This document shows, piece after piece, positions 9,442 through 54,689 of a stretch of DNA of 64,000 nt. How positions within the stretch are numbered: the stretch's first letter is position 1; each line of letters opens with the position of its first letter. The stretch comes from Candidatus Dojkabacteria bacterium (GTDB lineage Bacteria; Patescibacteriota; Dojkabacteria; SC72). The stretch lies in NCBI GenBank assembly GCA_012842045.1, contig DUTP01000005.1:11332-75331 (forward strand). The letters are read 5' to 3'. A model generated the notes under the pieces. The model saw nothing but the letters and a program-made list of their open reading frames with translations. It was not told the DNA's origin and did not search any database. Position numbers and translations under genes: made by a program.

Positions 9442-10329
9442 GTGGCTGATATAAACAATGTTAATTTTAAAGAAAAAGCAGAACTTTTTGCCAAGGATCT
9501 AACTTCCAAAGGAAGATCTGAGTCCACTGTTATCGCTTATGCAAAAGACATTGAGCAATTATTAAACTATCTGTCGAAAAGAGGAATTCTTTCTTTAGAT
9601 AAAGTAACAATCGAAGATTTAGAGGGATATAAACAAAACCTACAGGATAATAACTACACTCCAAAAAGTGTCTCTAGAAAAATAAATAGTACTAGAACTT
9701 TCTTCAGATTTCTTTTGGAAAACAACTTTGTAAGCGATAATGTTTCCGAGAAATTAGCACATCCTAGATTTGAAATTAAGCCACCCAGAGTACTAACAGA
9801 GATGGAGTACAGAGCATTAAGGGATGTTAGTAGAGTTGATATTAGACTCTACTCTATTGTAGAGATTCTTCTTCAAACAGGAATTAGAATTGGAGAATTA
9901 GCAGGACTTTCTCTTGATGATATTAGAAAGTCAAAGGATGGAAAGATTGATTTTCTTTACATTAAAGCTGCTGGTAGCCATCCAGCTAGAAAAGTTCCCC
10001 TAAACAAGTCTGCAAAGAAAGCATTAGATGATTATATTGCAGTTAGACCAGAGACAGAAGAAGATACTATTTTCATCACAAAGAATGGTAGACCTTTACT
10101 GGTAAGAAATATTAGAACTGCAATAGATAAATCTTTTGAGAGAGCTGGTATTAAGAATGCAAAGGTTAATGATCTTAGAAACACTTTTATTGCACATCAC
10201 TTAGCAAATGGTGTAAGTTTACCAACAGTATCAAAACTTGTTGGTCATAAAAGACTTTCTACTACAGAGAAATATCTGAATATTATTCCAGCTGTTGGTA
10301 AGGAAGAGAAAAACCTTAAGGAACTCTAA
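9442..10329 (+). CDS. Tyrosine site-specific recombinase, XerC/XerD-like (GTG start)
   Basis: 295 aa. N-terminal SAM-like core-binding domain. The C-terminus carries R...HxxR...Y catalytic residues (LRNTFIAHHLANG...GHKRLSTTEKYLNI). The size and motifs fit Xer-type recombinases better than phage integrases. Confidence 0.8.
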   Translation: MADINNVNFKEKAELFAKDLTSKGRSESTVIAYAKDIEQLLNYLSKRGILSLDKVTIEDLEGYKQNLQDNNYTPKSVSRKINSTRTFFRFLLENNFVSDNVSEKLAHPRFEIKPPRVLTEMEYRALRDVSRVDIRLYSIVEILLQTGIRIGELAGLSLDDIRKSKDGKIDFLYIKAAGSHPARKVPLNKSAKKALDDYIAVRPETEEDTIFITKNGRPLLVRNIRTAIDKSFERAGIKNAKVNDLRNTFIAHHLANGVSLPTVSKLVGHKRLSTTEKYLNIIPAVGKEEKNLKEL

Positions 10330-10507
10330 ATAATTAACTCTTAATACAGGTTCAGGTTACCACACTTACTTTCCCTTTCCCCATATGGACTATTACCGTT
10401 TTATTATGATTAGTTAACAAATTACAGGGTACTGTTTCCCTGTCACTATCTAACACCGAATCACAGTTTTGATTGAGGATTCTTCTCTTATATCAATGAA
10501 AAGTATG

Positions 10508-10583
10508 GGAATAGGTGGACTCGAACCACCGACTTCGGCTTTATAAGAACCGTGCTCTGACCTCCTGAGCTATATTCCCATAT
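10508..10583 (-). tRNA. tRNA-Ile with anticodon UAU (reads AUA)
   Basis: Reverse strand reads GGGAAUAUAGCUCAGGAGGUCAGAGCACGGUUCUUAUAAAGCCGAAGUCGGUGGUUCGAGUCCACCUAUUCCCA. Anticodon stem CGGUU/AGCCG, loop CUUAUAA (anticodon UAU), discriminator A73, U12-A23. CCA is not encoded. Confidence 0.75.
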
Positions 10584-10628: not shown

Positions 10629-13136
10629 TTAAAACATCGGTGGGAAAGCCGCAGAAGGTTGTGGTTGTTCAACTGGTTCTTCTTTCTCAAGCTGAGACCT
10701 GATACGAATGTCCTCCGCAACAACATTAACATCTCTCCCATATTTCATTCTAGACATATCTTTAATTACCTTCACCACTTCTTCGTTCACAGGTAAATCA
10801 AACCCTGCTTCAGGAAAAGCTTTGCCATAGCTAGTGTCAAGAGAAAAAGGTGCTGGATACGAACCATCAACAAGAAGTTTTGTATAATAATGAGCCATAC
10901 CTTGATTGACAATATCGCCCGCTGTGACATACCCCTCAAAAGGCGTTTCTAAGAACTGTGCATCTTCAGGACTACACCTCGCAATGTATAGAGAACCTAC
11001 ATTCCCAAATACAGCATTCTTAATGTCTTCTGGTAACTGTCCAATATATTGGTGTGCTAGAGTAAGATTAAGTCTGTATTTCCTAGCCTCAGAAAGAATA
11101 GAAGAAAACTCCTCTGTTGCAAAGTTTTGAAACTCATCCGCATAGAAAAAGAAGTCCCTTCTCTCGTACTCAGGAATATTCTCCCTACTTAGCGCTGCTG
11201 CAAGAAGTTTCTGAACAATCAATAAACCTAGAAAGGACATATTCTCATCACCAATTAAACCTTTAGAAAGATTTACAACCAAAATCTTACCTTCATCCAT
11301 CACTTGTCTAAAATCAAAAGAGGATGTGGACTGCCCAATTATATTTCTAATAGCTAAGTTCGTAGTAAACTTATCAAATTTTGAAATAAAGTATGTCAAA
11401 GACTCTGCTTTTGTCTTCTTGTCTGTCTTTGCTACCTGGTCAGTCCAATATCTAATAACTAATTCATCTTTAACCAATGGTAGCCAATGACTCATCACCC
11501 AGTCTTCATCTTGAAGAATTCTCACCACCTCAATCAAGGTCGAATCTGGCTTCGCCATGGCTGTTAACATAGAGTTTCTTACAGCCTGTTGAAATGCAGG
11601 ACCTGCATAACCTTGATTATTTGGATCAAAAAGCCTGATAAGTAAAGCAAGAAAACTATTTACAATTTGATGTTTATGTTGCTCATTATAATATTCCATG
11701 ATATTAAGACCAAACGGTCTTTCGAAATCACCAGCATTAAAATAGATAACATCTTCTGCTCTCTCTGCTGGGATTCTCTCCAACACCATATCAGCAGCAG
11801 AACCATGAGGATCTATAAAACAAACACCATCACCATTATATATATCCTGCATAATCATTCTGACCATCAACCAGGACTTACCTGTACCCGTCTGACCAAG
11901 TATGTATGCATGTCTCCTCCTATCATCTCTTTTTGAACATATCATCTTTTTCTTGCCTCTGAAATAGTTATTCCCAACCCAAATAGTATCCGGAGAATTA
12001 ATATCGGAACTTATCAAATTATCCGCCGGTAACTCTTTTGATAATAACCATTTGATATTAGGAGTTGTTATCTCTTTATTTGGGAAGTGATAGAGTGCAG
12101 CAAGCTCTTCAATATTTAATATACTTTTCTCGTCTTCTGGAGCTCTTCTATAAATTACATCATAGAGAAAGGCCTTTTGGTCTCTTTCTTTTACTTCCTT
12201 CTTTTGTAACTTATTAATCCCCGGATTGTTGTACTGCTCAAAGGCAGCAACTATATTATCCAAATGCATCTTTGCAATTGCTTTATCTGGAGCACTTGTA
12301 ATAATTCTAATCTCCGCAATCATCCCTGGTTTTGAGACCTTTTTATTAACAGCTTCCAATTTCTCTGGAGGTACATTTATTTTTTTCTTCTCTGGATCTG
12401 CATTATTCTTCTCTACATTCTGCACAAACCCTATACCATTCTCTTGCCATTTCGAATCTGTCGGAGATACAACCAATTGAACCAATGCCCCTTCACTCTC
12501 TGCCATTTTACTTAGAGTACTTAAGACATTAGCTGTTGGGTCACCTGTAAAACCTTCAGCCATCCTAATTGGGTAGTATGCATCTTCCTGCAAAACAAGC
12601 CTTGCACACTCAATCTCTGTGTTAGGAGCAAAGATATTGTATTCATCTACTACTGCGACATCAGCATCCTGATATGAACCCAGTATTTGCTTTTCAACCA
12701 AATCTGCATACTGACGAGGACAGTGAACAAAAAACCTTATCTCCCCTGGAAGACCAACCATCTCAAAACTAACACTGTTGCTTACATTGAACATCCCTGC
12801 TAAACCCTTACTCTTTCCTCCTATTCCATATATATTTGCAAACATCTGCTCTGCGGTACCTATCTCCACCTCATTATCCCTTAAAACCCTAACTTCTAAA
12901 AGAACTCCATCACTAGCTTTCTCGTTTCTATCTTTCTTCCTCAACTTCTTTCTTACTAAAAAGAATCCGCCAACACAGACAGCTATGAGAAGAAGAACAA
13001 ACGTTATCCAACCCCAAGGGATTTTAATATTCTCAATGCTTGTAGCGTTGTCAGCATATCTAATAGTACTACTATCTCGCTTTGGTAAATCAGGAAATTG
13101 TTTTTCTTGTGTATAGAGAATATTTTCAGAATGCAT
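10629..13136 (-). CDS. Membrane-anchored P-loop ATPase of the TraG/VirD4/TraD (TraG-D_C / DUF87-like) family with a ~400-aa N-terminal domain of unknown function
   Basis: TM near aa 40-60 (WGWITFVLLLIAVCVGGFFLV). Walker A is HAYILGQTGTGKSWLMVRM. A Walker B / coupling-protein C-terminal motif block follows: FFFYADEFQNFATEEFSSILSEARKYRLNLTLAHQYIGQL. Confidence 0.6.
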   Translation of the reverse strand: MHSENILYTQEKQFPDLPKRDSSTIRYADNATSIENIKIPWGWITFVLLLIAVCVGGFFLVRKKLRKKDRNEKASDGVLLEVRVLRDNEVEIGTAEQMFANIYGIGGKSKGLAGMFNVSNSVSFEMVGLPGEIRFFVHCPRQYADLVEKQILGSYQDADVAVVDEYNIFAPNTEIECARLVLQEDAYYPIRMAEGFTGDPTANVLSTLSKMAESEGALVQLVVSPTDSKWQENGIGFVQNVEKNNADPEKKKINVPPEKLEAVNKKVSKPGMIAEIRIITSAPDKAIAKMHLDNIVAAFEQYNNPGINKLQKKEVKERDQKAFLYDVIYRRAPEDEKSILNIEELAALYHFPNKEITTPNIKWLLSKELPADNLISSDINSPDTIWVGNNYFRGKKKMICSKRDDRRRHAYILGQTGTGKSWLMVRMIMQDIYNGDGVCFIDPHGSAADMVLERIPAERAEDVIYFNAGDFERPFGLNIMEYYNEQHKHQIVNSFLALLIRLFDPNNQGYAGPAFQQAVRNSMLTAMAKPDSTLIEVVRILQDEDWVMSHWLPLVKDELVIRYWTDQVAKTDKKTKAESLTYFISKFDKFTTNLAIRNIIGQSTSSFDFRQVMDEGKILVVNLSKGLIGDENMSFLGLLIVQKLLAAALSRENIPEYERRDFFFYADEFQNFATEEFSSILSEARKYRLNLTLAHQYIGQLPEDIKNAVFGNVGSLYIARCSPEDAQFLETPFEGYVTAGDIVNQGMAHYYTKLLVDGSYPAPFSLDTSYGKAFPEAGFDLPVNEEVVKVIKDMSRMKYGRDVNVVAEDIRIRSQLEKEEPVEQPQPSAAFPPMF

Positions 13137-13201: not shown

Positions 13202-13525
13202 CTAATCATCAATAGGTTCTCCATGTATCTTTCTTTTAAGGATATCCAAAGCCGTACTATCAGCCCCTTGAGTATTAACATCAAATCCTGGGCCAGACCA
13301 TTTTCTTTCTATACTTCCTCCATCATTCTCACCCGTAGAAGCAATATCCTGTACTCCACCTGTAGGCTCATGCCCTGACACATCTGAAGTATAAGAAGAA
13401 GGTGTTGTAGGATCCTCAGCACCTGTTCTAGCTACAGGCTCTGTGGGTTCATAAGCAGGAGACAAATTCTCCAATGCCTCATTTAAATTATAATTTGTTC
13501 CTAGTTCAATATTGTTACCTTGCAT
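13202..13525 (-). CDS. Hypothetical Pro/Thr-rich small protein (may be non-coding)
   Basis: Only ORF in the 13137-13531 gap. Low-complexity composition and locally higher GC. Confidence 0.25.
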   Translation of the reverse strand: MQGNNIELGTNYNLNEALENLSPAYEPTEPVARTGAEDPTTPSSYTSDVSGHEPTGGVQDIASTGENDGGSIERKWSGPGFDVNTQGADSTALDILKRKIHGEPIDD

Positions 13526-17358: not shown

Positions 17359-19203
17359 CTATTTTTTCTCTACATTGAAGAAGACATGAGAAGGTTGTTG
17401 TTGTATTCTCATATGGCCTGGAGCCATCTGATTGTAAATATCTTTAAAACCAGCACCAGAAATATGAACTGGTCCCCTATTAGTATAGAAAATTACTTCT
17501 TTCGTTTGCCCTTCTCCCCAAACAATCCCAACGTTAGATATTGAACGAACAGGATTTGAAAGAAGTGCTTGTAACTCAGCTAGTGTATATGGCACTTTAT
17601 CTGTATTTCCATAATCCGCTCTTTCTCCTCCAGGACATTTTCCGTAGTCACTGGGTAACAACCTAGATTTATCAGGGGTTTTTCTTAAACCTAGACTGTG
17701 TTTTACAAAGTAAGCATTAACTATTACCATCATTTCTTCATGAGTTAAAAATGGCGAATGTCCACAATTTTCCCCTTTTGGATCTATGCCACTTCCTGCT
17801 CTATACCAAGACTTGTAAAACCATGTAACACCTGACTTCCTCTCCCAAGCATTATTGAACCAATCTTTTCCATTTCCACTAACTGTATCCCAACCCACAT
17901 GATTCCCCCATGCTCCATGAACAGCTGCATATTCAGTTGCAAAAACAACACCCTTTTTGGTCAATACTTGTCCTTTAGTTTGAGCAACAGCATTTCTCCA
18001 ACCTGCTGCATTTTGACAGTTTTTGTATACCTGATTACTTTGATTCGGAATTATATAGCCTTGTGTCCTAACTTTATGTAAGGCATAGGTTCTTGCAGCA
18101 ACAGCTTGAGCTTTCAATGCCTCAATATTCCAACTTGCTGGCATCTCATATATGCTATTCATATATTCTTGGAAACTTATTCTGATGTTATAACTCTTAG
18201 CCTTATTGTTACAGTCAACTCCTTCTCCTTTCACCCATATGGTCTCTGGTTCTTTAAACCCCTCCACAAAAGTAGCACCTGGGTAATAAACTTCAAGTAA
18301 TTTCCTGTAATTTTGTCCTGCATCAGCTCTAGCTCTAGCACCCCATTGGCTCATACCGTTTCTATGCGTATATGCACCAATCGAAAAAACCCCAAAAGAA
18401 CCAGCTGGAGCCTGTGAAATTGAAGTTCCAAAACTAGAACCTGTATATCCACCGGAGGAGATTAAACCTGCTCCTCTTGCAGCAATGAGGGCTGCTTGTA
18501 GTTGAGAAACATTCTTACTTAAGTCTGTAATATCAGAATTTAATTTCCTTCTCTGAGAATATTGACTATTCAACTCCGCCTGTAACTTAGCCCTCTCTTT
18601 ATCTAACAATGCATATGATTTATCTAACTCATCCTTCTGTTTATCTAAAACCTCTTTCTCTTTATCCAACCCCTCTTTTGCTTCAACTAAATTACTAAAC
18701 TCACCACTAATCTCCTCAACCCTATCCTTTAATATATTAAGAGCTCCTTTTCTAACATAAAAGCTTTGTACTAAATCCTTCCAATCAGAGAAAACAAAAT
18801 TAGCAAACCTATTCCTACTCTCTACATACAACAAACCAGATATGGAATCCATACTCCCTCTAACCTCTTCTAATTCCTTCTGTTTCTGTTCTAATTCTAA
18901 CAACTTCTTTTCAATCTCCTTAGCTTTACTATCAGAATTCGCTTTAGCTTTGTTAAGCTCCTCAGTCATCAATCTAATCTTCTCCTGTAAAGATGCATTA
19001 CTATCCTTAATTCCCTTAATCCTACTCTCTACTGTTTCTAATATTGATTTTTTACTAGAAAGCTCCTTTTGCTTTTGCTCTATTTGTTGTTCTAAATCAG
19101 CAATACCTTGAGCATTAACCACCCCTATGTAAGGAGTGCAGAGAGAGAAAATGAATATTATTAAAAGAAAAATTGTTTTGTAATTTCCGGACAGTTTCTT
19201 CAT
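17359..19203 (-). CDS. SpoIID/LytB-domain protein with an N-terminal signal peptide and long coiled coil
   Basis: The C-terminal domain contains WNIEALKAQAVAARTYALHKV...IPNQSNQVYKN, characteristic of the SpoIID/LytB amidase-enhancer family. The N-terminal ~250 aa is a heptad-rich coiled coil. Confidence 0.75.
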   Translation of the reverse strand: MKKLSGNYKTIFLLIIFIFSLCTPYIGVVNAQGIADLEQQIEQKQKELSSKKSILETVESRIKGIKDSNASLQEKIRLMTEELNKAKANSDSKAKEIEKKLLELEQKQKELEEVRGSMDSISGLLYVESRNRFANFVFSDWKDLVQSFYVRKGALNILKDRVEEISGEFSNLVEAKEGLDKEKEVLDKQKDELDKSYALLDKERAKLQAELNSQYSQRRKLNSDITDLSKNVSQLQAALIAARGAGLISSGGYTGSSFGTSISQAPAGSFGVFSIGAYTHRNGMSQWGARARADAGQNYRKLLEVYYPGATFVEGFKEPETIWVKGEGVDCNNKAKSYNIRISFQEYMNSIYEMPASWNIEALKAQAVAARTYALHKVRTQGYIIPNQSNQVYKNCQNAAGWRNAVAQTKGQVLTKKGVVFATEYAAVHGAWGNHVGWDTVSGNGKDWFNNAWERKSGVTWFYKSWYRAGSGIDPKGENCGHSPFLTHEEMMVIVNAYFVKHSLGLRKTPDKSRLLPSDYGKCPGGERADYGNTDKVPYTLAELQALLSNPVRSISNVGIVWGEGQTKEVIFYTNRGPVHISGAGFKDIYNQMAPGHMRIQQQPSHVFFNVEKK

Positions 19204-19220: not shown

Positions 19221-19634
19221 TTAGAAGAAAATGTTTTTTACAAAATCTATAATATAAGGTAGAAAGATAATTATGCCTGTAAATACAGATACTAAAGCAC
19301 TAACTAGAACTGCTCCTGCACTAACATCTTTGGCATATTTAACATTAATCTTAAAATCTTGAGAGACTGTATCACAGAGAGCTTCAATTGCACTATTTAT
19401 ACTCTCGGATATTAAGACCATTGAGATTACTAAGCTGATAGCTATCCATTCAAAATGTTCTATCTTAAAAAACACCCCTGCAAGTATTACAATAGCTCCA
19501 ATTACAAGCTCTATCTTAAAATTTCTTTCATTCCTAAATATTAGTTTTATGCCATTCCTAGCATACCCCTGACTTTTGAAAAAACTCTCTGCTTTAAAAG
19601 ACTTGTTTTTCACTTTAGGATGATTGGAAACCAC
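19221..19634 (-). CDS. dgkA: Diacylglycerol/undecaprenol kinase DgkA
   Basis: 137 aa, three TMs. RNERNFKIELV...ESINSAIEALCDTV...KYAKDVSAGAVLVS matches the prokaryotic DAGK signature. Confidence 0.8.
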   Translation of the reverse strand: MVSNHPKVKNKSFKAESFFKSQGYARNGIKLIFRNERNFKIELVIGAIVILAGVFFKIEHFEWIAISLVISMVLISESINSAIEALCDTVSQDFKINVKYAKDVSAGAVLVSALVSVFTGIIIFLPYIIDFVKNIFF

Positions 19635-19950
19635 CGTAAATTATACCTAGAATTAACCTCGAGAGAATGGTAAACACTAAACCTATTATCGCCCATGTAA
19701 GAGTCCCCTGAGCTTTCTTAACTTTTTCAGGATCTCCTCCGGAAATCATCCACATGTAACCACCGTAGATAATGAAAGCAACAGAGAGTATACCAACTAC
19801 AGGGAAAATATAACTGACGATTTTGTTTAAGTACCCAACGATTATCGACGCACTCAACTCTTTGGGCCTAGGAATGTCTGCCTGAGCAAAAGACGGTAAA
19901 GAGAAGAACTTAAATAGTTGGTAGAAAAATTGCACTAGAGAAACATCCAT
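19615..19950 (-). CDS. Small two-TM protein, VirB2/TrbC-like T4SS-pilin-like family (paralog 5 of 5)
   Basis: Hydrophobic N-terminus, then ...FIIYGGYMWMISGGDPEKVKKAQGTLTWAIIGLVFTILSRLIL. It shares the GGY-x5-G-[DN][PE]EKV-K-A...AI[IV]GL motif with its four neighbours. Confidence 0.5.
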   Translation of the reverse strand: MDVSLVQFFYQLFKFFSLPSFAQADIPRPKELSASIIVGYLNKIVSYIFPVVGILSVAFIIYGGYMWMISGGDPEKVKKAQGTLTWAIIGLVFTILSRLILGIIYGGFQSS

Positions 19951-19952
19951 AA

Positions 19953-20231
19953 TTATTTAAATCCGATGAAATTATCTAGTACGAACTTCACAATGATGGG
20001 GGCTATAAACACAAGGACTAACCCTACCAAAGCAAAAACCAATGTTTTTGTAGCTTCTTTTACCTTATCTTCATCTCCTCGAGAGAAAATATACTTAAAG
20101 CCTGCAATAATTACTGCTATGACTACAAGTATTACAGATGCTGAAGTCGCAAAGTTTACAACATACTTGATAAACTCTGCTATATCATCAAAACCAGCTC
20201 GAGTTATTCCGTCGATAAAGAAAGATTCCAT
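19953..20231 (-). CDS. Small two-TM protein, VirB2/T4SS-pilin-like family (paralog 4 of 5)
   Basis: ...IAGFKYIFSRGDEDKVKEATKTLVFALVGLVLVFIAPIIV. Same architecture and motif as its neighbours. Confidence 0.5.
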   Translation of the reverse strand: MESFFIDGITRAGFDDIAEFIKYVVNFATSASVILVVIAVIIAGFKYIFSRGDEDKVKEATKTLVFALVGLVLVFIAPIIVKFVLDNFIGFK

Positions 20232-20250
20232 ATGTTAACCTTTTACTTAA

Positions 20251-20622
20251 TTAGCTTTTCGGTCCTAAGAAGTTCTTAATAACAAAGTTGACCAGAATTA
20301 CAGCGATAAAACATACAACTAGACCAACGATTGCCCATGTAAGAGTCTTTGTTGCTTTTTGAACTTTCTCCTCATTGCCACTAGCTGTGATATATGAATA
20401 ACCTGCGAAAATCAACATAACTACACATACCAAAGCTGCAATACCGATAGCCCAGTTAATCAAATTTCTAACAAATTGCATCAAATCTCGCTCACCTGTT
20501 GTATGTATATCGTCTATATAGCTCAATGCATCATCTGCTCCTGTTTGTGCAAATGTAGCAGAGGCCAGGTAAAGAGATGAACCAATAGAACTGATTCCTG
20601 CGATTGCTTTTGATAACTTCAT
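20251..20622 (-). CDS. Small two-TM protein, VirB2/T4SS-pilin-like family (paralog 3 of 5), with a signal peptide
   Basis: Signal peptide (MKLSKAIAGISSIGSSLYLASATFAQ), then ...FAGYSYITASGNEEKVQKATKTLTWAIVGLVVCFIAVILV. Confidence 0.5.
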   Translation of the reverse strand: MKLSKAIAGISSIGSSLYLASATFAQTGADDALSYIDDIHTTGERDLMQFVRNLINWAIGIAALVCVVMLIFAGYSYITASGNEEKVQKATKTLTWAIVGLVVCFIAVILVNFVIKNFLGPKS

Positions 20623-20689
20623 ACTTAAATGTTTATTAATATATTATATATTGCCTGATTATATCCAAGCACAAAGTAAAAATCAACTT

Positions 20690-21013
20690 TTAAAAACTTC
20701 CTTTTTCTTTTAAAGTATCGATAACAAGCTCCACTATAACTCTTGCAAGGAATACTATTATCATTCCAATAATGGCTGCTACTAGTACATTTCGACCTTT
20801 CTCCACCTTCTCTGGGTTGCCAGCAGACGTAATAAATGTATAGCCCCCATAGACTATCATTATTACTGCGACTAAACCAGAGAGAACTATTGCCCAGTTC
20901 AAAAATGGTACAACCTTAGCACTTACAACATCATCAACACTACTACCAGGTAGCTTAATCAACCATTTGCTACTACTAAATAGAGACCCTGTATCTATTC
21001 CTCCTTCACCCAT
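20690..21013 (-). CDS. Small two-TM protein, VirB2/T4SS-pilin-like family (paralog 2 of 5)
   Basis: ...VYGGYTFITSAGNPEKVEKGRNVLVAAIIGMIIVFLARVIV. Confidence 0.5.
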   Translation of the reverse strand: MGEGGIDTGSLFSSSKWLIKLPGSSVDDVVSAKVVPFLNWAIVLSGLVAVIMIVYGGYTFITSAGNPEKVEKGRNVLVAAIIGMIIVFLARVIVELVIDTLKEKGSF

Positions 21014-21366
21014 TATCGAAATGCATCTAAATCTAAAGTATCACTCAATAGTAAAAGTATACCAACAGACATTAAAACTACAAGTAGGCCAATAATTGCA
21101 TTTGTTATCACAGACTTAGCCTCCTGCAACTTCTCCGGGTTTCCTTGACTAGAAACCATCATGTATCCTCCATAAGAGAGTAATATTAACGCTGCAATTA
21201 TGGCTACTGGCATAGCAACCGCAACAATTCTTTGAACAAGAGTTTCCTCTGAATCTATTGACCCAACATCATCCACTAACAACTTCACATTATCTTCTAA
21301 TCCTAACCTCTGAGCATATACCTTCTGTACAAAGAAAAGATTTATTTTATCAAAAAATCTATCCAT
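21013..21366 (-). CDS. Small two-TM protein, VirB2/T4SS-pilin-like family (paralog 1 of 5)
   Basis: ...LSYGGYMMVSSQGNPEKLQEAKSVITNAIIGLLVVLMSVGIL. Its start overlaps the stop of the next paralog (ATGA at 21013). Confidence 0.5.
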   Translation of the reverse strand: MDRFFDKINLFFVQKVYAQRLGLEDNVKLLVDDVGSIDSEETLVQRIVAVAMPVAIIAALILLSYGGYMMVSSQGNPEKLQEAKSVITNAIIGLLVVLMSVGILLLLSDTLDLDAFR

Positions 21367-24664: not shown

Positions 24665-25393
24665 TTAAAGCTCTGTTCCTCCCCACTCGATAACTGTAAA
24701 GCCTTTTCGAGTAAATGGTTTAAATGTTTGTTTTTCTATATCTATCTTCTGATTTAAAGGTTTGAAAACCATGAAGACCCTTAATACAGAATCTGGCTGA
24801 GGATCAATCTCAAGTGGAACTCTACTATCATACTCTTCCTCTGTCGCAAAATGGATTAAGTTATATTCATTCCCAATCATTTTAGGCAGCCAATATACTA
24901 TAAATTCATTATATTCCTTTTCATTCAAACCCATCTCTTCCAACTGCTGTTGCAAGAACTGCATTGTATCTGAACCTTTAACAACAAAACCTGTACTTAA
25001 ATCATATTCGGCAGAACGACCAGAAGGAGCCTCCCAGAAGAGATAACTGTACTCTCTTCCATCTTCAATATTAGTTAATATACCATCTGGTTTTGCAATA
25101 ACGTTCCATCCGTCTTTGTATTCTGGGTATGTTACTAAGAAGTTTGCTTTTGGAGTTACAGTAACTTTGACTATCATCTCTTCCTCTGGATAGAGATATA
25201 TTACCGGCTTAGCATCATATTCATCGCCAATATGCAAATCTCTGAGCTGTTGAACTAAGGATTTTTCCTTTTTTAAAAAGAAAAAGCATACTGCAATAAC
25301 TCCTAAAACACCCAATATTACGAATATTATCCATATTGGTATTTTTCTGTCCTTTACACTCTTCTTTTTTTTAGTCATATATATATTATTCAT
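24665..25393 (-). CDS. Hypothetical membrane-anchored protein
   Basis: One N-terminal TM (IPIWIIFVILGVLGVIAVCFFFL) and a globular ectodomain. No motif recognised. Confidence 0.4.
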   Translation of the reverse strand: MNNIYMTKKKKSVKDRKIPIWIIFVILGVLGVIAVCFFFLKKEKSLVQQLRDLHIGDEYDAKPVIYLYPEEEMIVKVTVTPKANFLVTYPEYKDGWNVIAKPDGILTNIEDGREYSYLFWEAPSGRSAEYDLSTGFVVKGSDTMQFLQQQLEEMGLNEKEYNEFIVYWLPKMIGNEYNLIHFATEEEYDSRVPLEIDPQPDSVLRVFMVFKPLNQKIDIEKQTFKPFTRKGFTVIEWGGTEL

Positions 25394-30658: not shown

Positions 30659-31129
30659 ATGAAAGGAAAGAAATATGAGGGTTTCTCTCTTATCGAGATC
30701 CTAGTAGTAGTAGCATTAATCATTATTCTTGCTGCTATTACAATTATTGCAATCAACCCTGCAAAGAACTTTAGGGACACTCGAAATGCACAGAGAGGTT
30801 CTGATGTAAATGCTATTCTTAATGCAGTTACACAGTATATCTCTGAGGAGGGAAGAACACTTGCAAGCATTGGGACTATCTTAGACTGTGAAGATGCACA
30901 GGGTGATCCACAGGCTACAAAGATTGGTACAAGCACAGACGCTGGGTACATTGACCTTACCCCAACACTTGTAACACAAGCAGACCTAATCGTTGCAATT
31001 CCTATAGACCCATTGGATGCATATGATGAGGAAGATACTGGTTACACTATCTGTGCAACACAAGGAGGAAGAGTACAAGTAGCTGCTCCTCACACAGAAG
31101 GAAAGGATCCTATTGTTGTAAAGAGATAG
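30659..31129 (+). CDS. Type IV pilin (prepilin with class III signal peptide)
   Basis: MKGKKYEGFSLIEILVVVALIIILAAITIIAI is the prepilin peptidase cleavage/methylation motif (G/FSLIE) followed by a hydrophobic alpha1 helix. It is the first gene of the pil operon. Confidence 0.8.
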   Translation: MKGKKYEGFSLIEILVVVALIIILAAITIIAINPAKNFRDTRNAQRGSDVNAILNAVTQYISEEGRTLASIGTILDCEDAQGDPQATKIGTSTDAGYIDLTPTLVTQADLIVAIPIDPLDAYDEEDTGYTICATQGGRVQVAAPHTEGKDPIVVKR

Positions 31130-31190
31130 GTTAGTTAAGTAAACAAATATATAAAGTGAGTATCAGATAGCTCTTAGCTGTCCAAGAGTT

Positions 31191-32606
31191 ATGGTAGAAC
31201 TATTACAATTACTAGATGATGTTCTTAAGAAGAAGATTAACATATCTGACTTTCTTGACGCATTAGTCGTAGATGCTCTCAAAAGCGGAGCATCTGATAT
31301 TCACATAGAATCTAAGGAGGATGATATTCTTTTAGTTAGATACAGGGTTGATGGAGTATTGAGAGATATAATCTCAATTGGTCCAGAACTAAAAGATACT
31401 CTCCTCTTTATCATCAAAGTAAGAGCTAAGTTAAGAACAGATGTCCATCTTGCACCACAGGATGGGAAGATCCCTTTTGTTGTTAAAAAAGCTGACATTG
31501 ATGGTGATAAAGAGAAGATTAAGAAAGAGGAAGAGAATGATAAAGACCAAGAGAAAGATGATGTAGAAGAACCCATTGAGGAAAAAGAGAAAAAGAAGAA
31601 AGAAAAAGAGGAGGAGGAACAAGAGAAGAAAGTACTAAACAGGTTGGAAGCATTCAAAGCAGAAGAAAAAGATACCTACAATGTTGATGCTAGAGTATCA
31701 ATACTTCCTGTATCATACGGTGAGAAAGTTGTTATTAGGCTATTAACACAAGCTAACCGATCTCACTCTTTAGCTGATCTAGGTTTTGAAGAACATGACC
31801 TAGCTGAACTAGAGAAAGCATACACACAACCATATGGACTAATATTAATTACAGGACCTACAGGTAGTGGTAAAACCACCACACTCTACTCTATTCTAAA
31901 GATATTAAATACTCGGGAGGTCAATATAACAACAATTGAAGACCCTGTTGAGTACAGTATCGAAGGTGTAAATCATATTCAAATTAACGTAAAAAGTGAT
32001 TTAACCTTTGCTACTGGACTTAGATCTATTTTAAGACAAGATCCAAATGTCATTATGGTCGGCGAGATTAGAGATACAGAAACAGCTAGAATTACTGTTA
32101 ACTCAGCACTAACAGGTCACTTAGTATTATCTACTCTCCACGCAAACGACTCTGTAAGTGCTGTACCAAGATTGATAGATATGGGTATTGAACCCTTTTT
32201 AATCGCATCTACATTAAATATTGTCGTAGCACAAAGACTCGCAAGAAAACTTTGTCCCGATTGTAAGAAACCGTGCTCTCTAGAAAAAGATAAAGAGATA
32301 AAAGAAATGTTAAAGATAAGACCAGATGTAGCTAAATATATAAAACCAACAGATAAATTCTACAAAGCTGTTGGTTGTGATAAATGTAACAACGTGGGTT
32401 TAAAAGGCAGAATTGGAATATATGAAGTACTAGTAATTAACAAAACAATGAGAGATACAATAATAAAGAATCCTACAATGGATGATATATTCCAAACAGC
32501 AAAGAAATCTGGTTTTAAACTAATGGTAGAAGATGCTGTAGACAAACTTAAAAAAGGATATATTGATATACCTGAATTACTTAAGGTTATTGCAATTAAA
32601 GATTAA
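31191..32606 (+). CDS. pilB: Type IV pilus assembly ATPase PilB (GspE family)
   Basis: Walker A (LITGPTGSGKTTTLYSIL), Asp box, Walker B (VIMVGEIRD), His box (LVLSTLHAND) and a C-terminal tetracysteine (CPDC...CDKC). Contains an acidic low-complexity insert (EKKKKEKEEEEQEKK). Confidence 0.9.
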   Translation: MVELLQLLDDVLKKKINISDFLDALVVDALKSGASDIHIESKEDDILLVRYRVDGVLRDIISIGPELKDTLLFIIKVRAKLRTDVHLAPQDGKIPFVVKKADIDGDKEKIKKEEENDKDQEKDDVEEPIEEKEKKKKEKEEEEQEKKVLNRLEAFKAEEKDTYNVDARVSILPVSYGEKVVIRLLTQANRSHSLADLGFEEHDLAELEKAYTQPYGLILITGPTGSGKTTTLYSILKILNTREVNITTIEDPVEYSIEGVNHIQINVKSDLTFATGLRSILRQDPNVIMVGEIRDTETARITVNSALTGHLVLSTLHANDSVSAVPRLIDMGIEPFLIASTLNIVVAQRLARKLCPDCKKPCSLEKDKEIKEMLKIRPDVAKYIKPTDKFYKAVGCDKCNNVGLKGRIGIYEVLVINKTMRDTIIKNPTMDDIFQTAKKSGFKLMVEDAVDKLKKGYIDIPELLKVIAIKD

Positions 32607-33757
32607 TGGCAGAAGAAGAAAAAATAAAAGAGGAGAAAATTCAAGAAGAGAAACCTAAAAAAGAAAAACCAAAGAAGGAAGAACCTAGAGAGAAGCTTTT
32701 GAAAAAATTACAGGGAGTAAAGGTCTCTGTGCCAAACCTTTTAGTTTCTATAAAATCTTTAGCTTCATTACTTAAAGCTGGTATACCTCTCTCTGAAACA
32801 ATGGAAACCATTGCAGGCCAATCAAGCGATCAAAATCTTAATGCAGTATATGAGTATATCGCTGGAGAAGTCAGAAAAGGAGTCACATTAGCAGAAGCAA
32901 TGAAACTTTTCCCCAAGGTCTTTCCAGAAACAATTTCATCTGTAGTAGAAGCTGGTGAACAAGGTGGTTCTCTAGAACAAAACCTTATCTTCATCTCAGA
33001 TACAATTAAAAAAGAATGGGAAATTAACAAGAAGTTAAAAGGTGCAATTATCTACCCTATTATTATCGTTTGTATGGTTTTCATGGTTTTCCTTGCCATG
33101 ATATTTATCGTATTCCCAAAGTTAGAGACAATGTTTGCAGCTTTTGAAAATATTCCTGCGTTTACACAAGCAATTTTAAGTATTTCCAGATATATTCGAG
33201 CAAATTGGTATTTTATCTTTGGTGGTGTTGGTGTTCTGGTAGTACTTTTTATAGTTTTCTTAAAAACAAAACCCGGGAAAAAATTTAAAGGTTGGCTTGG
33301 GATTAACTTCCCTATTCTTAAAAATCTCTTCATCAACAACATTCTATCCTCTTTCTCAAGAACTCTGAGTGTGTTGCTAGCAAGTGGTATACCTATCGCT
33401 AAGTCTATGAAAATTGCAGCAAACACAACAAGTAACTATATCTATGCAGAGGTGTTAGAAGATGTATACAAGAGTATAGAAGCTGGTGATTCGCTATCTC
33501 TTTCATTAGGAAAGCATCCGAAATATTTTAATAAATCTTTTATTAAAATGGTTGAAATAGGAGAAGCCAGTGGATCATTAGAAGACAATCTTATGTACCT
33601 ACATGAATATTATGCAGAAGAGGTCGGAGAGATGAGTGCAAATATCGTTACAGTTGTAGAACCTGTTCTACTCATCTTGGTAGGTCTTATCATCGGAAGC
33701 TTAGTAGTAACTATCCTCATGCCTATTTACCAATTAATGGGTTCTATCAATGCTTAA
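32606..33757 (+). CDS. pilC: Type IV pilus platform protein PilC (GspF family)
   Basis: Duplicated GspF domains with three TMs. Start overlaps the pilB stop (TAATGG). Confidence 0.85.
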   Translation: MAEEEKIKEEKIQEEKPKKEKPKKEEPREKLLKKLQGVKVSVPNLLVSIKSLASLLKAGIPLSETMETIAGQSSDQNLNAVYEYIAGEVRKGVTLAEAMKLFPKVFPETISSVVEAGEQGGSLEQNLIFISDTIKKEWEINKKLKGAIIYPIIIVCMVFMVFLAMIFIVFPKLETMFAAFENIPAFTQAILSISRYIRANWYFIFGGVGVLVVLFIVFLKTKPGKKFKGWLGINFPILKNLFINNILSSFSRTLSVLLASGIPIAKSMKIAANTTSNYIYAEVLEDVYKSIEAGDSLSLSLGKHPKYFNKSFIKMVEIGEASGSLEDNLMYLHEYYAEEVGEMSANIVTVVEPVLLILVGLIIGSLVVTILMPIYQLMGSINA

Positions 33758-34211
33758 AAAACATAACAAAGAAAAAAAACTAAAAGGATTCTCTCTTTTA
33801 GAAATAATTGTAACTGTAGGTATTCTACTTTTGTTTTCTGGAATAATATTTCCTTTTACAATTACTAAGATCAAGAGAACACAACTACAAAGTTATGCTT
33901 CAGAGATAGCTGCGGATATATATTTTCAACAACAAGAAGCTAGAAACAGAAACCAGCCCACTGGTGTTTTTCTTGAAAGTGGACAGTACACTCTTTTTAC
34001 AGGAGAGACTTATGCAACAGCTACAGAAAAAGACAAGAAAGAGCTCAAAAAAGGAACTTACTTATCATCCATTATGTTAAATGATGGAACTTCTATTCGT
34101 TTTGAGGGGAGTTCTTTTAAACCTCTGACATACGGGTCTTTTCTTTTAAGTAATGGGAGAAGTAGCGTCAAGATAGAGATAAATCAAGAAGGGTTAGTAG
34201 AGTATGAATAG
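33750..34211 (+). CDS. Pseudopilin / minor pilin (prepilin N-terminal motif)
   Basis: KKLKGFSLLEIIVTVGILLLFSGII is a class III signal peptide. Confidence 0.7.
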   Translation: MLKKHNKEKKLKGFSLLEIIVTVGILLLFSGIIFPFTITKIKRTQLQSYASEIAADIYFQQQEARNRNQPTGVFLESGQYTLFTGETYATATEKDKKELKKGTYLSSIMLNDGTSIRFEGSSFKPLTYGSFLLSNGRSSVKIEINQEGLVEYE

Positions 34212-36147
34212 TATTAGAAAGAAATACAAAGCATTTAGTCTAGCTGAATTAATTATAGCAGTAGCTATCTTCGGTTTAATTTCTGCTTTCTTGACACTAC
34301 TTGTGGTTGATTCAACAAGAGCATATGAAAACACATATGCTAGATCTAAAGCTACAAGTCTTGTAAAAGAGATATACTCTACTCTGAAATTGTTAAAAAC
34401 TGATAACTGGTTTGAAGTAACCAAGCATACAGGATTAGGACCTAAGCATTTAATATTCGAAGAAGGAGAGTACAAGATAGCTGATGGAGAAAAGGTTGAA
34501 GGCTTACTAACCTACTTCTTCACCGTTGATTTAGCACAGAGGGATACAGATGGAAAGATTGTAGAAGAAGGTGGTAATACTGACGCACATACAAGAGTAA
34601 TCTCTGTTAATATTAAATGGAAGGACAGGGTTGGTAAAGAACACGTTATAAATCCAAAACTCTATCTTAATGACTGGCATGTTAATACTTTCACCTTCAC
34701 TTCTATGGAAGATTTTCAGCCAGGTGGACATACTGACACAACGGCATCCGAGAGTTTTACTGGTGGTGAATTAAGATTACAATCAGTCTTCTATCCTAAC
34801 TGGTGCAGACCTGAGAGATCTATGAGTAGTTATGATATCCCAGGAGAAGCATATGCGAAATCAATATTCGCTGAAATTGGATATGCATATCTAGGAACGA
34901 GAGGTGGAGATGTTGGTGATCCTTTCACTAAATTAAGAATTGAAGGTGTTAACCCTACAACACTAACAGTAGAGGGAACATTCCAAGGATATCGTATTAA
35001 TGACATCTTCGTAGAAGGAGACTATGCATATCTCGCAACATCAGATGATGAGAAAGAGATTGTCATCTTAGATATCTCCTCAGTCCCTTACCAAGAGGTA
35101 GGACATGTAAATGCACCAGACCAATGGAATAATGATGCTAGGAGTGTGTTTGTAAAAGGTAATGTCGGATATCTAACACAGAGTACGTATGTAAGAAGTT
35201 TTGATTTATCCTCTAAAACAGGTTCTAGGCCTATTCTTAATAGCATATCTATCAGTCTTATCCCCTGGATAGCATCAGTCTCACAGATACATGTTAAAGA
35301 TAATTATCTTTATGCATCACTAGACTGGGACTGGTACGAATTAGCAATTCTTGATGTTAGTAATCCCAGTAAAATGAAGATACTCTCTAGAACAAGTGTA
35401 AACAATCAACAAGTATATGATATGTATGTTTCAGATGATGGAAACAGAGTGTATTTTGGAACAAACTACTCCTCAAGTGAACACGAATTTTTCATAATTG
35501 ACACAAGTGTAAAGAATATTAAATGTCCTATTATTGCATCTAGAAAAGTAGATATGACTGTTAGAGGTATATCTGTTGTTGAAGATGGAAATGTTGTTGT
35601 ATTAGTAGGGACATCAGGTCAAGAATATCAAGTATTTTCTATCACCGACGAAACAAATCCTGTAAAGTGTGGAGGTATGAGCATACCTTCTGGTGTCTAC
35701 GATATCCAATCTGTCCTAGATCCACAAGGGAATGCTTTCTCGTACATCTTAACCGGTGATAAACATCAAGAATTTACAATAATCAGGGGAGGTCCCGGAG
35801 GTGGAGATGAAGATACAGGTAATGGTTTTGTACCAACGGGAAGTTACATTTCTGCAATTCAGGATTCTAAAACTTCAAACTCCACTTATTATACATTAAG
35901 CATTCAAACAAACATCCCAGAAGGAACTCAAATGGGCATTCAGATAAGGATTGGTGATAGTCCAACTATGCAAGGTATACCATGGAAAGGTCCAGATGGA
36001 ACAAACGGAACATACTACTCCACAAGTGGCACTTACTCTTTACCACCAGGAACTAAAGGAAGATATTTCCAATACAAAGTAGACTTTACAGGTGATACTG
36101 TTAACTCACCAATGCTTGAAGAATTAATTATTAGCTATGAGAAATAA
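34204..36147 (+). CDS. Large minor pilin / pilus-tip protein (647 aa) with a prepilin N-terminus and a repeat-rich beta-propeller-like ectodomain
   Basis: KAFSLAELIIAVAIFGLISAFL prepilin motif. Downstream are repeated segments of the LVIVD/beta-propeller type (YAYLATSDDEKEIVILDIS, LYASLDWDWYELAILDVS, VYFGTNYSSSEHEFFIIDTS). Confidence 0.6.
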   Translation: MNSIRKKYKAFSLAELIIAVAIFGLISAFLTLLVVDSTRAYENTYARSKATSLVKEIYSTLKLLKTDNWFEVTKHTGLGPKHLIFEEGEYKIADGEKVEGLLTYFFTVDLAQRDTDGKIVEEGGNTDAHTRVISVNIKWKDRVGKEHVINPKLYLNDWHVNTFTFTSMEDFQPGGHTDTTASESFTGGELRLQSVFYPNWCRPERSMSSYDIPGEAYAKSIFAEIGYAYLGTRGGDVGDPFTKLRIEGVNPTTLTVEGTFQGYRINDIFVEGDYAYLATSDDEKEIVILDISSVPYQEVGHVNAPDQWNNDARSVFVKGNVGYLTQSTYVRSFDLSSKTGSRPILNSISISLIPWIASVSQIHVKDNYLYASLDWDWYELAILDVSNPSKMKILSRTSVNNQQVYDMYVSDDGNRVYFGTNYSSSEHEFFIIDTSVKNIKCPIIASRKVDMTVRGISVVEDGNVVVLVGTSGQEYQVFSITDETNPVKCGGMSIPSGVYDIQSVLDPQGNAFSYILTGDKHQEFTIIRGGPGGGDEDTGNGFVPTGSYISAIQDSKTSNSTYYTLSIQTNIPEGTQMGIQIRIGDSPTMQGIPWKGPDGTNGTYYSTSGTYSLPPGTKGRYFQYKVDFTGDTVNSPMLEELIISYEK

Positions 36148-36622
36148 AAAGAAGATCAAATTAAAAGGACTTACATTACTGGAGACACTACTCTATGTAG
36201 CTCTTTTCTCTATGATTCTCTTTGTAATTATAAACTTCATGCTTGGTACACAAGAAGCAACTAGAAGAAATATGCAAAGAAGCTCTGTTCACCAATCAGC
36301 ACAGTTTGTCAAACAACACTTCGATTACTCTTTTCAGAAGGTAATACAAGTAAGTGAAGGAAGTAGTATTTTTAATAATGATAATGGGAAATTAACATTA
36401 ATTTTCTCAGACACAAGTAAATCATATACAATCTCAAACAATAGGATATATTTTAATGATATTGCTATCACACCAAAAAACATATCTGCAACAAAATTAC
36501 ATTTTGAACCCATATATAGTAAGAAGGGTGTAGTCATGGCAATTAAAGTGTCGACAAAACTAGTAACTAAAAAAGACCCAAAGATATTTGAAGAGATAAC
36601 TTACCTTGCTGTTATTAGATAG
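36137..36622 (+). CDS. Pseudopilin / minor pilin
   Basis: LKGLTLLETLLYVALFSMILFVII is a prepilin-like N-terminus. Overlaps the upstream stop. Confidence 0.6.
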   Translation: MRNKKKIKLKGLTLLETLLYVALFSMILFVIINFMLGTQEATRRNMQRSSVHQSAQFVKQHFDYSFQKVIQVSEGSSIFNNDNGKLTLIFSDTSKSYTISNNRIYFNDIAITPKNISATKLHFEPIYSKKGVVMAIKVSTKLVTKKDPKIFEEITYLAVIR

Positions 36623-36625
36623 AAA

Positions 36626-37030
36626 ATGAAGAAAAGAGATAATAAACAACTCAAGAAAAATGGATATATTGCTCTAACAACAGTTTTAGTAATCATACCC
36701 CTACTCCTTGCAACAGGGATAGACTTAGCATACAGAAGTATAACGAATGCTCTTGTCAGCAAATTGGAGTTTGATCACAACATGTTAGAGGTAAATGCTG
36801 AATCTTGTTTAGAAGAAAGTGTTAGAAAGATAAAGTTTAATATTTTGTTTGAAGGAACATTGATAGTAGAACAACCAACATGGACTTGTAACTCTGTCAT
36901 ATCAAATAAACCAGGAGTAAGTGGTGTAAAGATAATAAATATACAGGCAAGTGATGGAAACCAGAATGTAGTATTACTTAATAAAGAATTAAATACAAAT
37001 ACAGATCCATTTGAAATCTCAAATATTTAA
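36626..37030 (+). CDS. Membrane-anchored pilus-associated protein (PilX/minor-pilin-like), hypothetical
   Basis: NGYIALTTVLVIIPLLLATG is an N-terminal hydrophobic helix. Operon position is between the pseudopilins and pilD. Confidence 0.4.
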   Translation: MKKRDNKQLKKNGYIALTTVLVIIPLLLATGIDLAYRSITNALVSKLEFDHNMLEVNAESCLEESVRKIKFNILFEGTLIVEQPTWTCNSVISNKPGVSGVKIINIQASDGNQNVVLLNKELNTNTDPFEISNI

Positions 37031-37622
37031 AAAAAAATTAAAGAAGGTTGATATTATTTTCATAGTTTGTTTTCTCCTTAGTGCTATATCTATACCTGTT
37101 GCCCTTTTTTTGAAGTCTAGCGATCTAAAGGGAATTCTTTTTTCAACCCTTCTACTAACTCCGTTATTTGGAGCTCTGTGGTATCTTGCATATTATGATT
37201 ACAAGAAGATGGAAGTTCAGCCTACTCTTTCTCTTGCTTTGATAATAGTTTTAGGAATTGTTAATATTTTAGCTTTCTTCTTTTGGAAGGATAATGAGTT
37301 TGGATATAATAATTTGTTGGGAGGTATTACTCTTGGTGTTATTTTTCAATTAATTGTTCTACTTACAAAAGAGAGGGGTCTAGGACAGGGAGATGTTAGA
37401 ATTGCAATTATATCTGGTTTATTAGTTGGTTTTGATGGTTTAACTCCTTGGTTATATATTACAATATTTTCTTCTTTGTTATATGGAATTATTATTGCTA
37501 TTAAGAGAAGAAAGTTTAGAGGTTTGAAAATACCGTTTGTACCTTTTATGGTGTTTGGGGTTGTTATTTTAATAATTTCTCATCTACACCTGACTCAAAT
37601 CCACTGTTTTGCCCAAATATAA
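37011..37622 (+). CDS. pilD: Prepilin peptidase (A24 family), short form lacking an N-terminal Zn-finger domain
   Basis: Polytopic. GLGQGDVRIAIISGLLVGF matches the catalytic (G)GGDVKL aspartate motif of A24 peptidases. Confidence 0.75.
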   Translation: MKSQIFKKKLKKVDIIFIVCFLLSAISIPVALFLKSSDLKGILFSTLLLTPLFGALWYLAYYDYKKMEVQPTLSLALIIVLGIVNILAFFFWKDNEFGYNNLLGGITLGVIFQLIVLLTKERGLGQGDVRIAIISGLLVGFDGLTPWLYITIFSSLLYGIIIAIKRRKFRGLKIPFVPFMVFGVVILIISHLHLTQIHCFAQI

Positions 37623-53568: not shown

Positions 53569-53834
53569 ACCAAGTATTTTTAATAATATTAAGAGACAGT
53601 TTGCTTGGAGGGCAGTCTACGGTCGATTGGGACTCTGTTGAACATTATATTCAATTTCTAAAAAATGTGGATATCTTTTACAAGATATCTTAAAAAGAAT
53701 TACTAGTACAAGATTTTTAAAAGTGAGTTTTATCTCTAGTAATTCTAGAGAGGAAAAGTCTTTTTGAAAACAGATTTGCTAAATACTTTTAGTTACTATA
53801 TAATCAGCAAGATTTCAGATAGTCAGTTCAAAAT

Positions 53835-54017: not shown

Positions 54018-54022
54018 AAGAT

Positions 54023-54596: not shown

Positions 54597-54689
54597 TAAT
54601 TTGCAAAGATTTTTAAGGGTTGATATAATAAAAATATCATGAGGGAGGGAAGGTTGTAGATTAAATGCTACAAGCAACACTCCCATTTT

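Follow-up and report, generated by a model that had tools for sequence, protein, structure and literature searches.

What do five small, divergent membrane proteins encoded one after another contribute to a Patescibacterial cell: interchangeable versions of one pilin, or distinct parts of one structure? The question is raised by a 64-kb stretch of DNA from a Candidatus Dojkabacteria bacterium (contig DUTP01000005.1; hereafter the window), in which five consecutive, co-directional open reading frames (ORFs) on the minus strand fill the region 19615-21366. We refer to them, in operon order, as pilA, pilB, pilC, pilD, and pilE, names given in this analysis. The original prediction, made from the letters of the DNA, took them for a tandem array of paralogs resembling the VirB2/TrbC pilins of type IV secretion systems (T4SSs), and it offered two explanations: a filament built from several subunit types or antigenic diversification. 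On the evidence of their sequences, all five genes encode the VirB2-like "T4SS pilin" known from Patescibacteria (Pfam family PF18895), in divergent copies. The array is real but not unusual: such arrangements are on record for hundreds of related ultra-small bacteria.

Five copies of one pilin module

The predicted ORFs, encoding proteins of 92 to 123 amino acids (aa), lie exactly at the coordinates given for them. The first, pilA (21013..21366; 117 aa), has a short leader ending in VYAQ, and pilB (20690..21013; 107 aa) is leaderless. A canonical Sec-type signal peptide (…LASATFA followed by Q) opens pilC (20251..20622; 123 aa). The shortest protein, pilD (19953..20231; 92 aa), is again leaderless, and the last, pilE (19615..19950; 111 aa), has a leader ending in SFAQ. 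Hence the one clear signal peptide that had been noted is that of pilC, but pilA and pilE also have shorter leaders (YAQ and FAQ). The junctions were said to overlap or abut. This holds for pilA and pilB, which share 1 nucleotide (nt), the pilB start lying on the pilA stop, and for pilD and pilE, which are 2 nt apart; it does not hold for pilC and pilD, separated by 19 nt, or for pilB and pilC, separated by 67 nt.

All five proteins contain two hydrophobic segments (residues 47-65 and 90-108 in pilA) with a short conserved polar loop between them, as had been described for a shared module of two transmembrane (TM) segments, TM1-loop-TM2. The paralogs align over the motif [GA]G[YF]-x6-G-[DN]-[PE]-[ED]-K-[VL]-x-[KE]-[AG]...A-[IL]-[IV]-G-[LM]. 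The predicted loop motif is thus conserved in every copy, but its spacing is x6, not x5. The alignment has five invariant columns, and aligning the copies, the check on divergence that had been proposed, gave identities of 25 to 44% (local alignments).

We measured family membership against curated thresholds. The module of PF18895 (T4SS_pilin), ~70 residues with TM, short polar loop, and TM, is present in each protein, and in whole-protein score all five exceed the gathering score of 26.6 bits: pilC scores best at 62.6 bits, followed by pilE at 47.3, pilB at 44.5, pilD at 44.1, and pilA at 33.3. The PF18895 annotation is also precomputed on public contigs. PF04956 (TrbC/VirB2), with a gathering score of 27.9 bits, is passed only by pilD, at 34.4 bits; pilC (20.8 bits), pilE (19.7 bits), and pilB (11.9 bits) fall below it, and pilA has no match. 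The NCBIfam model NF045849 ("Mbov_0395 family pilin-like conjugal transfer protein"), defined on integrative and conjugative elements (ICEs) of Mycoplasma, has a cutoff of 40 bits, which pilC (51 bits) and pilD (40.6 bits) pass and which pilE (38.9 bits), pilB (36.2 bits), and pilA (33.5 bits) narrowly miss. The other Pfam families listed for the five proteins (DctQ, Cyt_bd_oxida_II, etc.) are all below cutoff, and NCBIfam adds weak matches to the N-terminal parts of two larger conjugation membrane proteins, MMCAP2_0566 and pLS20_p028. The pilin identity read from the letters was therefore upheld by Pfam, through PF18895 for all five copies and through TrbC/VirB2 for pilD.

Public records include a hypothetical protein of Candidatus Dojkabacteria with exactly the pilC sequence, and homologs from Candidatus Dojkabacteria have been deposited under the names "TrbC/VirB2 family protein," "pilin," or "Mbov_0395 family pilin-like conjugal transfer protein." The family is very large: of 1.84 billion cluster representatives, a profile made from the five paralogs reaches 87,778 with a cutoff of E <= 1e-3 and 20,225 with the stricter E <= 1e-10. 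The five-gene block is found again on more than 23 contigs. Because each of the five proteins exceeds the gathering score of a single Pfam family and the block recurs on these contigs, we conclude that the array is not a product of chance.

How does it compare with the arrays already known? Quinonero-Coronel et al. (2025; PMC12102498) screened 3,035 Patescibacteria genomes, using PF18895 and PF04956 among their pilin profiles, and counted 441 arrays in 383 assemblies, an array being 2 to 11 pilin genes in tandem or with one non-pilin gene between them. Five adjacent genes in a Candidatus Dojkabacteria genome fall within that definition. Identity within the published arrays has a mean of 25% and a maximum of 54%, beside the 25 to 44% found here. 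The arrays of Southlakia epibionticum ML1 and Nanosynbacter lyticus TM7x (the "Sec secreted array") are likewise tandem runs of small PF18895/VirB2-like genes, similar in structure and divergent in sequence, in bacteria of the Candidate Phyla Radiation (CPR), and Patescibacterial arrays share an origin-proximal position with the array described here. The S. epibionticum array has six genes, sits inside a T4SS cluster (SEML1_0006-0019) with virB4, and is essential as a predicted pilin series (Wang et al. 2023, PMC10633639; PMC12857230). In contrast, the present array has five genes, lies apart from any virB4 between UvrD/PDDEXK and SpoIID-like genes, is 6.5 kb upstream of a VirD4-like ATPase gene, and belongs to an uncultured member of the Dojkabacteria.

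Positional orthology of the copies and variation between strains

We compared the window with six further Dojkabacteria contigs (L009 to L014), seven genomes in all. Throughout the class the five-gene block is kept, and the locus is syntenic in these relatives: AP endonuclease, UvrD/PDDEXK, the pilins, a diacylglycerol kinase (DAGK) gene that is present in only some of the seven genomes, SpoIID, a protein of ~208 aa, DUF5657, a protein of ~760 aa, SmpB, a protein of ~100 aa, a VirD4-like protein, and XerC. Six of the seven genomes have five pilins, and L013 has six, while pilC identity across the six contigs goes down to 51%. In a neighbor-joining tree of the 36 pilins from the seven genomes, the copies group by array position and not by genome. 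Bootstrap values are 100 for the pilA clade, 99 for the pilE clade, and 28 to 42 for those of pilB, pilC, and pilD, which lie close to one another. The same tree identifies the extra pilin of L013 as a duplicate of pilC, the only copy duplicated in a relative.

Each position also keeps, across genomes, its length class, its leader or leaderless state, and its signature in the ortholog alignments. The pilA signature is SSQGNPDKLQEAK-VITNAIIG (also written SSQGNPxKLQEAK-VITNAIIG), and that of pilE is GGYMWM-SGGDP-KVKQAQGTLTWAIIGLVF; pilB orthologs keep an Arg inside TM2 (FLAR/FIAR), and pilC orthologs have Cys in both helices. Because the array is syntenic and its copies group by position, the paralogs are old, orthologous by position, and probably not interchangeable. 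The pattern fits subunits with distinct, fixed roles, not a pool of interchangeable variants.

Could the five genes nevertheless be interchangeable, alternative major pilins that serve antigenic or host-range variation, only one or a few of them being expressed at any time? The idea has been raised for Patescibacteria by Quinonero-Coronel et al. (PMC12102498), and it would suit two promoter-like sites within the array, N-terminal regions that are the most variable and probably exposed, and the sharp divergence island that the cassette forms between close strains (see below). We nonetheless consider it improbable. Gene number and order stay fixed at five in six of the seven genomes while pilC diverges to ~50%, and signature, length class, and leader state are all kept by position. 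There are no recent duplicates and no long stretches of shared DNA or inverted repeats to drive conversion or switching: the longest DNA repeat between copies is 53 nt at 74% identity, no meaningful inverted repeats occur in the array, and its only tandem repeat is a trivial AT-rich one of 19 nt. Phase variation and gene conversion were rejected on this ground. Moreover, dN/dS values of 0.06 to 0.27 for the pilins (window versus L009) indicate purifying selection, and fused multi-module proteins found elsewhere argue for modules that work together. Of the two explanations first offered, then, distinct subunit types are favored by positional orthology, stable number, and the lack of linking repeats; switching among copies within one cell is not favored, and diversification is seen between strains, as exchange of the whole cassette.

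The virB2 arrays of Bartonella and Anaplasma phagocytophilum make a useful comparison. They likewise represent tandem amplification and divergence of a T4SS pilin gene, but they belong to diderm animal pathogens, lie beside a complete VirB system, and have copies thought to serve antigenic variation, whereas the copies described here are old, fixed by position, and under purifying selection.

What, then, varies between strains? Between the window and L009, a close relative, nucleotide identity is 91 to 98% in UvrD and 70 to 77% in the pilin array, exactly over 21400-19600; further on, it is back at 91 to 100% in the kinase gene and the initial portion of the SpoIID-like gene. Synonymous divergence (dS) is 1.0 to 1.4 in the pilins versus 0.11 to 0.36 in adjacent genes. 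The raised dS therefore points to a deeper ancestry of the array segment, not just to faster protein evolution. In strains L002 and L003, the flanks are 94.5 to 96.7% identical to the window and the pilins 98.2 to 99.7%. The L009 pilins are at about equal distance from the window and from the more distant L007. These sequence comparisons suggest that alleles of the pilin cassette have moved whole between strains by homologous recombination. Such exchange is usual for exposed structures that face a host or phages; we regard this as a lead, not a result.

Other segments of the window also diverge from L009. The rest of the SpoIID-like gene, at 17359-18700 (the C-terminal two-thirds of the protein), is 42 to 70% identical within flanks of 91 to 100%, and identity is 94 to 98% afterwards; at 13202-13525, a gene for a 107-aa protein is 61% identical within flanks of 86 to 91%. 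The SpoIID-like protein has a dN/dS of 0.45 and the 107-aa protein one of 0.79, and the C-terminal part of the SpoIID-like protein and the 107-aa protein may be further exposed or host-facing proteins. A gene for a 242-aa single-pass membrane protein (24665-25393, minus strand) is present in the window, L001, and L002; in L009, otherwise 92 to 97% identical, a 45-aa ORF replaces it.

Is one of the five the main subunit? We scanned 16 to 25 kb for sigma-70-like promoter sites, scoring matches to the consensus out of 12. The best site in this span, P1 (21372..21399, minus strand; TTGTCA-16-TATAAT, 11/12), lies directly 5' of pilA and overlaps the end of the helicase gene that precedes the array; the related loci also have a TATAAT before pilA. 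The next-best minus-strand site, P2 (20658..20686; TTGATT-17-TATAAT, 10/12), lies in the spacer between pilB and pilC. Where the array has five pilins (six genomes), this spacer measures 66 to 69 nt, and all seven genomes retain TTGnnn-~17-TATAAT in a spacer that has otherwise diverged. The -1 Ala of the pilC signal peptide is conserved in at least 90% of 56 orthologs. Because pilC combines a conserved private predicted promoter, a canonical signal peptide, and the top hidden Markov model (HMM) score, and is the sole copy duplicated in a relative, we propose it as the candidate bulk (major) subunit. Positional orthology, an internal predicted promoter, and strain-level divergence of the cassette are not reported in the consulted text of PMC12102498 and PMC10633639.

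Topology, assembly, and genomic setting

In the orthologs of pilA, pilC, and pilE, the leader ends in [FYW]-A, and the next residue is Q, S, N, D, or T; for pilB and pilD, even the longest possible ORF includes no leader. Variation among the proteins is greatest in the N-terminal regions and C-tails (13 to 60% identity), and conservation is strongest in the loop and TM2. With mixed charges in loop and tails, the positive-inside rule leaves the topology unsettled, and we therefore argued it from the leaders and from the extensions of relatives. Because Sec leader cleavage puts the mature N terminus outside, the loop would be cytoplasmic and the C terminus outside as well. Termini that both face outward also agree with the variable ends, with the Cys-rich or PKD extensions that relatives carry after TM2, and with natural fusions, which join the C terminus of one hairpin to the N terminus of the next. 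AlphaFold2 (AF2) models pilC as a hairpin of two helices, 45-78 and 83-117 (pLDDT 71.9).

The same plan, a small protein in which a leader precedes two hydrophobic helices with a short polar loop, is found in VirB2 of the Agrobacterium Ti plasmid, TrbC of RP4, and TraA of F, and a leader that ends in Ala before a Gln, as here, resembles the reported VirB2 processing site. Against their family, PF04956, pilD passes the cutoff and the other four copies fall below it. Unlike these pilins, two of the present copies are leaderless, the organism is a monoderm, and no virB3-virB11 genes are adjacent; to conjugative pilins of solved structure, no sequence similarity is detectable. The Mycoplasma ICE pilin-like proteins Mbov_0395 and MMCAP2_0565 (NF045849) share the two-TM module of 80 residues and likewise belong to a monoderm, genome-reduced bacterium. 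However, the Mycoplasma protein is encoded by a single gene in a mobile conjugative element beside VirB4 and VirD4, whereas the array here consists of five chromosomal paralogs without mobile-element context, three of them just under the family cutoff.

What might five such proteins build? We think it fairly probable that they are non-redundant, VirB2-like Patescibacterial T4SS subunits, that a VirB4-type machine encoded elsewhere assembles them into an envelope-spanning or extracellular tube, and that pilC is the main one. On this model, pilA, pilC, and pilE would be inserted through Sec and cleaved after the leader [FYW]-A by signal peptidase, and pilB and pilD would be inserted without a leader. 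All five would become hairpins in the membrane, with a cytoplasmic loop and both termini outside. From there, a VirB4-driven T4SS, whose genes would lie in another part of the genome, would draw the subunits into a tube or pilus-like conduit leading through the monoderm envelope toward a host cell. The bulk of this conduit would be pilC, and the other four would have fixed specialized roles, e.g., as base, initiator, tip, or adaptor. Homologous recombination between strains would swap the cassette as a whole, which is what one expects of an exposed structure that faces a host or phages. Family membership comes directly from the searches above; for the assembly we draw on the VirB2/TrbC/TraA paradigm, the logic of topology, and the literature.

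Several observations weigh against this model. A pilus of PF18895 proteins has never been purified or imaged with certainty, and T4SSs of the Gram-positive type are normally without pili, according to PMC12102498 and PMC12857230. Fold searches returned only generic helical hairpins, giving no independent support from the fold. Sequence and profile searches of the PDB with pilC orthologs, pilD, and 27 Dojkabacteria pilins found no sequence-related structure, the only matches being chance ones to TRP channels and designed proteins. The bootstrap values for pilB, pilC, and pilD are low, the recombination argument uses very few strain pairs, and SmpB and the VirD4-like gene also have high dS. VirB4, VirB3, VirB6, and VirB8 were not found by Pfam and NCBIfam among the ~55 ORFs of the window. 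The VirD4-like neighbor matches weakly, and homologs of the type IV coupling protein (T4CP) are abundant in Patescibacteria and usually unlinked to virB4; the S. epibionticum copy is non-essential. Because the window is without core T4SS genes, the array is tied to a T4SS by its protein family and by the literature: for VirB4, the signature ATPase of T4SSs, Table S1 of PMC12102498 gives "Yes" for Dojkabacteria assemblies, and a preprint (bioRxiv 10.64898/2026.06.21.733656) names Dojkabacteria among the T4SS-bearing lineages.

Perhaps the five proteins stay in the membrane as integral parts of the secretion channel, or of some other complex of the envelope, and build no filament at all, "pilin" being a family label? 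Monoderm T4SSs generally lack pili (PMC12102498 and PMC12857230, as above), no core T4SS genes lie near the array, the NCBIfam matches to MMCAP2_0566 and pLS20_p028 are to parts of larger membrane proteins, and the fold is a generic hairpin. Furthermore, up to 17 hairpins fused in one protein (see below) are hard to fit with subunit-by-subunit polymerization. We still judge such a channel to be an unlikely explanation: three of the five proteins have cleavable-looking leaders, relatives bear extracellular PKD or Cys-rich domains on the pilin module, a strain-level divergence island is typical of exposed structures, and pilD passes the VirB2/TrbC model. In addition, tubular structures "that may be T4SS pili" have tentatively been seen at the interface between a cultivated Patescibacterial parasite and its host (bioRxiv 10.64898/2026.06.21.733656).

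That the five are unrelated two-TM proteins (holins, toxin/immunity peptides, or type IV pilus [T4P] components) whose family match reflects composition is very improbable and has been largely refuted: short hydrophobic proteins do draw many weak HMM matches, a lytic-type SpoIID gene lies next door, and a T4P cluster lies 10 kb away, but PF18895 is the only family whose curated cutoff all five pass, none matches the type IV pilus N-methylation motif PF07963 in Pfam, the only PHROGs matches, all at E >= 0.002, are of unknown function and include no annotated holin, composition does not account for the conserved polar loop motif, the family profile reaches 20,225 representatives at E <= 1e-10, and the context is conserved and chromosomal, not that of a prophage. 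A holin, the unrelated small membrane family that the original prediction had itself put forward as a possible better match, is thereby rejected.

What surrounds the array? Upstream lies the gene for the UvrD/PDDEXK helicase-nuclease. Downstream follow, in order, genes for DAGK, a 614-aa SpoIID protein, a bPH_2 membrane protein, a DUF5657 protein, a 791-aa single-pass protein without a family, SmpB, the 107-aa protein, and an 835-aa VirD4-like ATPase (DUF8128); these neighbors include no VirB3-VirB11-type cluster. The SpoIID-like protein (17359..19203, minus strand; PF08486, 60 bits) is secreted and has a coiled coil, and its gene is found downstream of the array in all seven genomes, with the optional DAGK gene between. 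Judging from synteny, it could be a cell wall-remodeling partner of the pilins. The VirD4/T4CP-like ATPase (10629..13136, minus strand) is membrane-anchored and matches PF02534 at 27.5 bits, DUF87 at 29.3 bits, and, below cutoff, NF045973 (E = 1.4e-10); its matches in the PDB, DotL and TrwB, cover the Walker A region only. It is the sole T4SS-type ATPase in the window and is syntenic in all related loci. Beside it and a gene for a XerC-like recombinase (9442-10329) lies a tRNA-Ile gene with anticodon TAT (UAU) (10505-10580, minus strand; ARAGORN).

The origin region occupies 50562-56723, with dnaN at 50562-51686, dnaA at 52141-53568, and then rnpA, yidC, and jag, and the GC skew changes sign at ~54-56 kb. 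The array is ~31 kb from dnaA and co-oriented with replication, an origin-proximal position that agrees with the reported placement of Patescibacterial T4SS genes. Also near the origin, at 59014-63634 (plus strand) and, for the next gene, at L015:3487-5541, are genes for large proteins of 632, 899, and 684 aa with no family match. The 632-aa protein has about eight TM segments; in the 899-aa protein, a signal peptide and a long Cys-rich outer domain precede six TM segments at the C terminus. As VirB6-like candidates, these membrane proteins have no family support, and the contig with the 899-aa protein revealed no core T4SS genes just past the end of the window.

Between the array and the origin, a cluster of the type IV pilus or competence type (30659-37622, plus strand), ~10 kb from the array, encodes an N_methyl pilin, a PilB-like T2SSE ATPase, a PilC-like T2SSF protein, a GspH-like minor pilin, a 647-aa N_methyl protein with LVIVD repeats, and a prepilin peptidase. 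It belongs to a family other than that of the T4SS pilins, and its true N_methyl pilins (30659-31129 and 34204-36147) stand apart from the array. Further on are a HinfI-family type II restriction enzyme (NF045831, 373 bits) beside an N6/N4 DNA methylase with a RAMA domain (39921-41790, minus strand) and a transfer-messenger RNA (tmRNA) gene (41933-42354).

Fused relatives and what the array may mean

The top matches of the family profile are single polypeptides with 2 to 17 tandem pilin modules, here called polypilins. Each module is a TM-polar loop-TM unit, and the linkers are ~20 to 40 aa long. Those examined, all outside the window, are P0121 (552 aa), P0122 (820 aa), P0127 (1775 aa), and P0131 (1147 aa), together with the loci L016:10001-15328 and L017:9925-12387. 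A polypilin of 17 modules is encoded on an archaeal-looking contig (ribosomal protein L39e, Csa1/Cas4), and one of eight modules on a CPR-like contig, where a pilin, a pilin-PKD fusion, and a PKD-repeat protein follow it. Polypilins occur in bacteria and, apparently, in archaea. Such fusions are not mentioned in the consulted passages of Quinonero-Coronel et al., the sole paper that a full-text search for PF18895/T4SS_pilin returned.

An independent array of six pilin-like genes is present in a different Patescibacterial class, at L008:8778-11668 (Candidatus Paceibacter, DYGA01000001.1). In two of its members, the C terminus carries a Cys-rich extension (214 and 224 aa). The array is bordered by housekeeping genes and by glycosyltransferase-like membrane genes, and there is no VirB4 in the 11 kb of the locus inspected.

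Might the separate copies be the unlinked version of what the fusions join? Because conserved positional paralogs and fused polypilins point that way, we raise the tentative and, in our estimation, rather unlikely possibility that the five paralogs are obligate partners that co-assemble at defined stoichiometry into one heteromeric, envelope-spanning conduit, that polypilins are its covalent version, and that the cassette is swapped whole. If true, this would be a T4SS-derived filament or channel architecture without counterpart among solved conjugative pili. Cassette swapping would then match host or phage pressure, and the structure would not be a homopolymeric pilus with optional variants.

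A large part of the bacterial diversity not yet in culture belongs to the Patescibacteria, whose cells live attached to those of a host. Although the role of their T4SS has been described as "completely unknown," the system, including its pilin series, is essential in the one species tested. The locus described here adds nothing categorically new to this picture. It does provide a clean natural data set: five old subunit types in fixed order, a private predicted promoter for pilC, and cassette-like variation between strains. These features speak for a structure of several subunits and would guide the choice of targets for expression, prediction of hetero-oligomers, and cryo-electron tomography (cryo-ET). 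The fused multi-module relatives may prove a more interesting lead than the locus itself.

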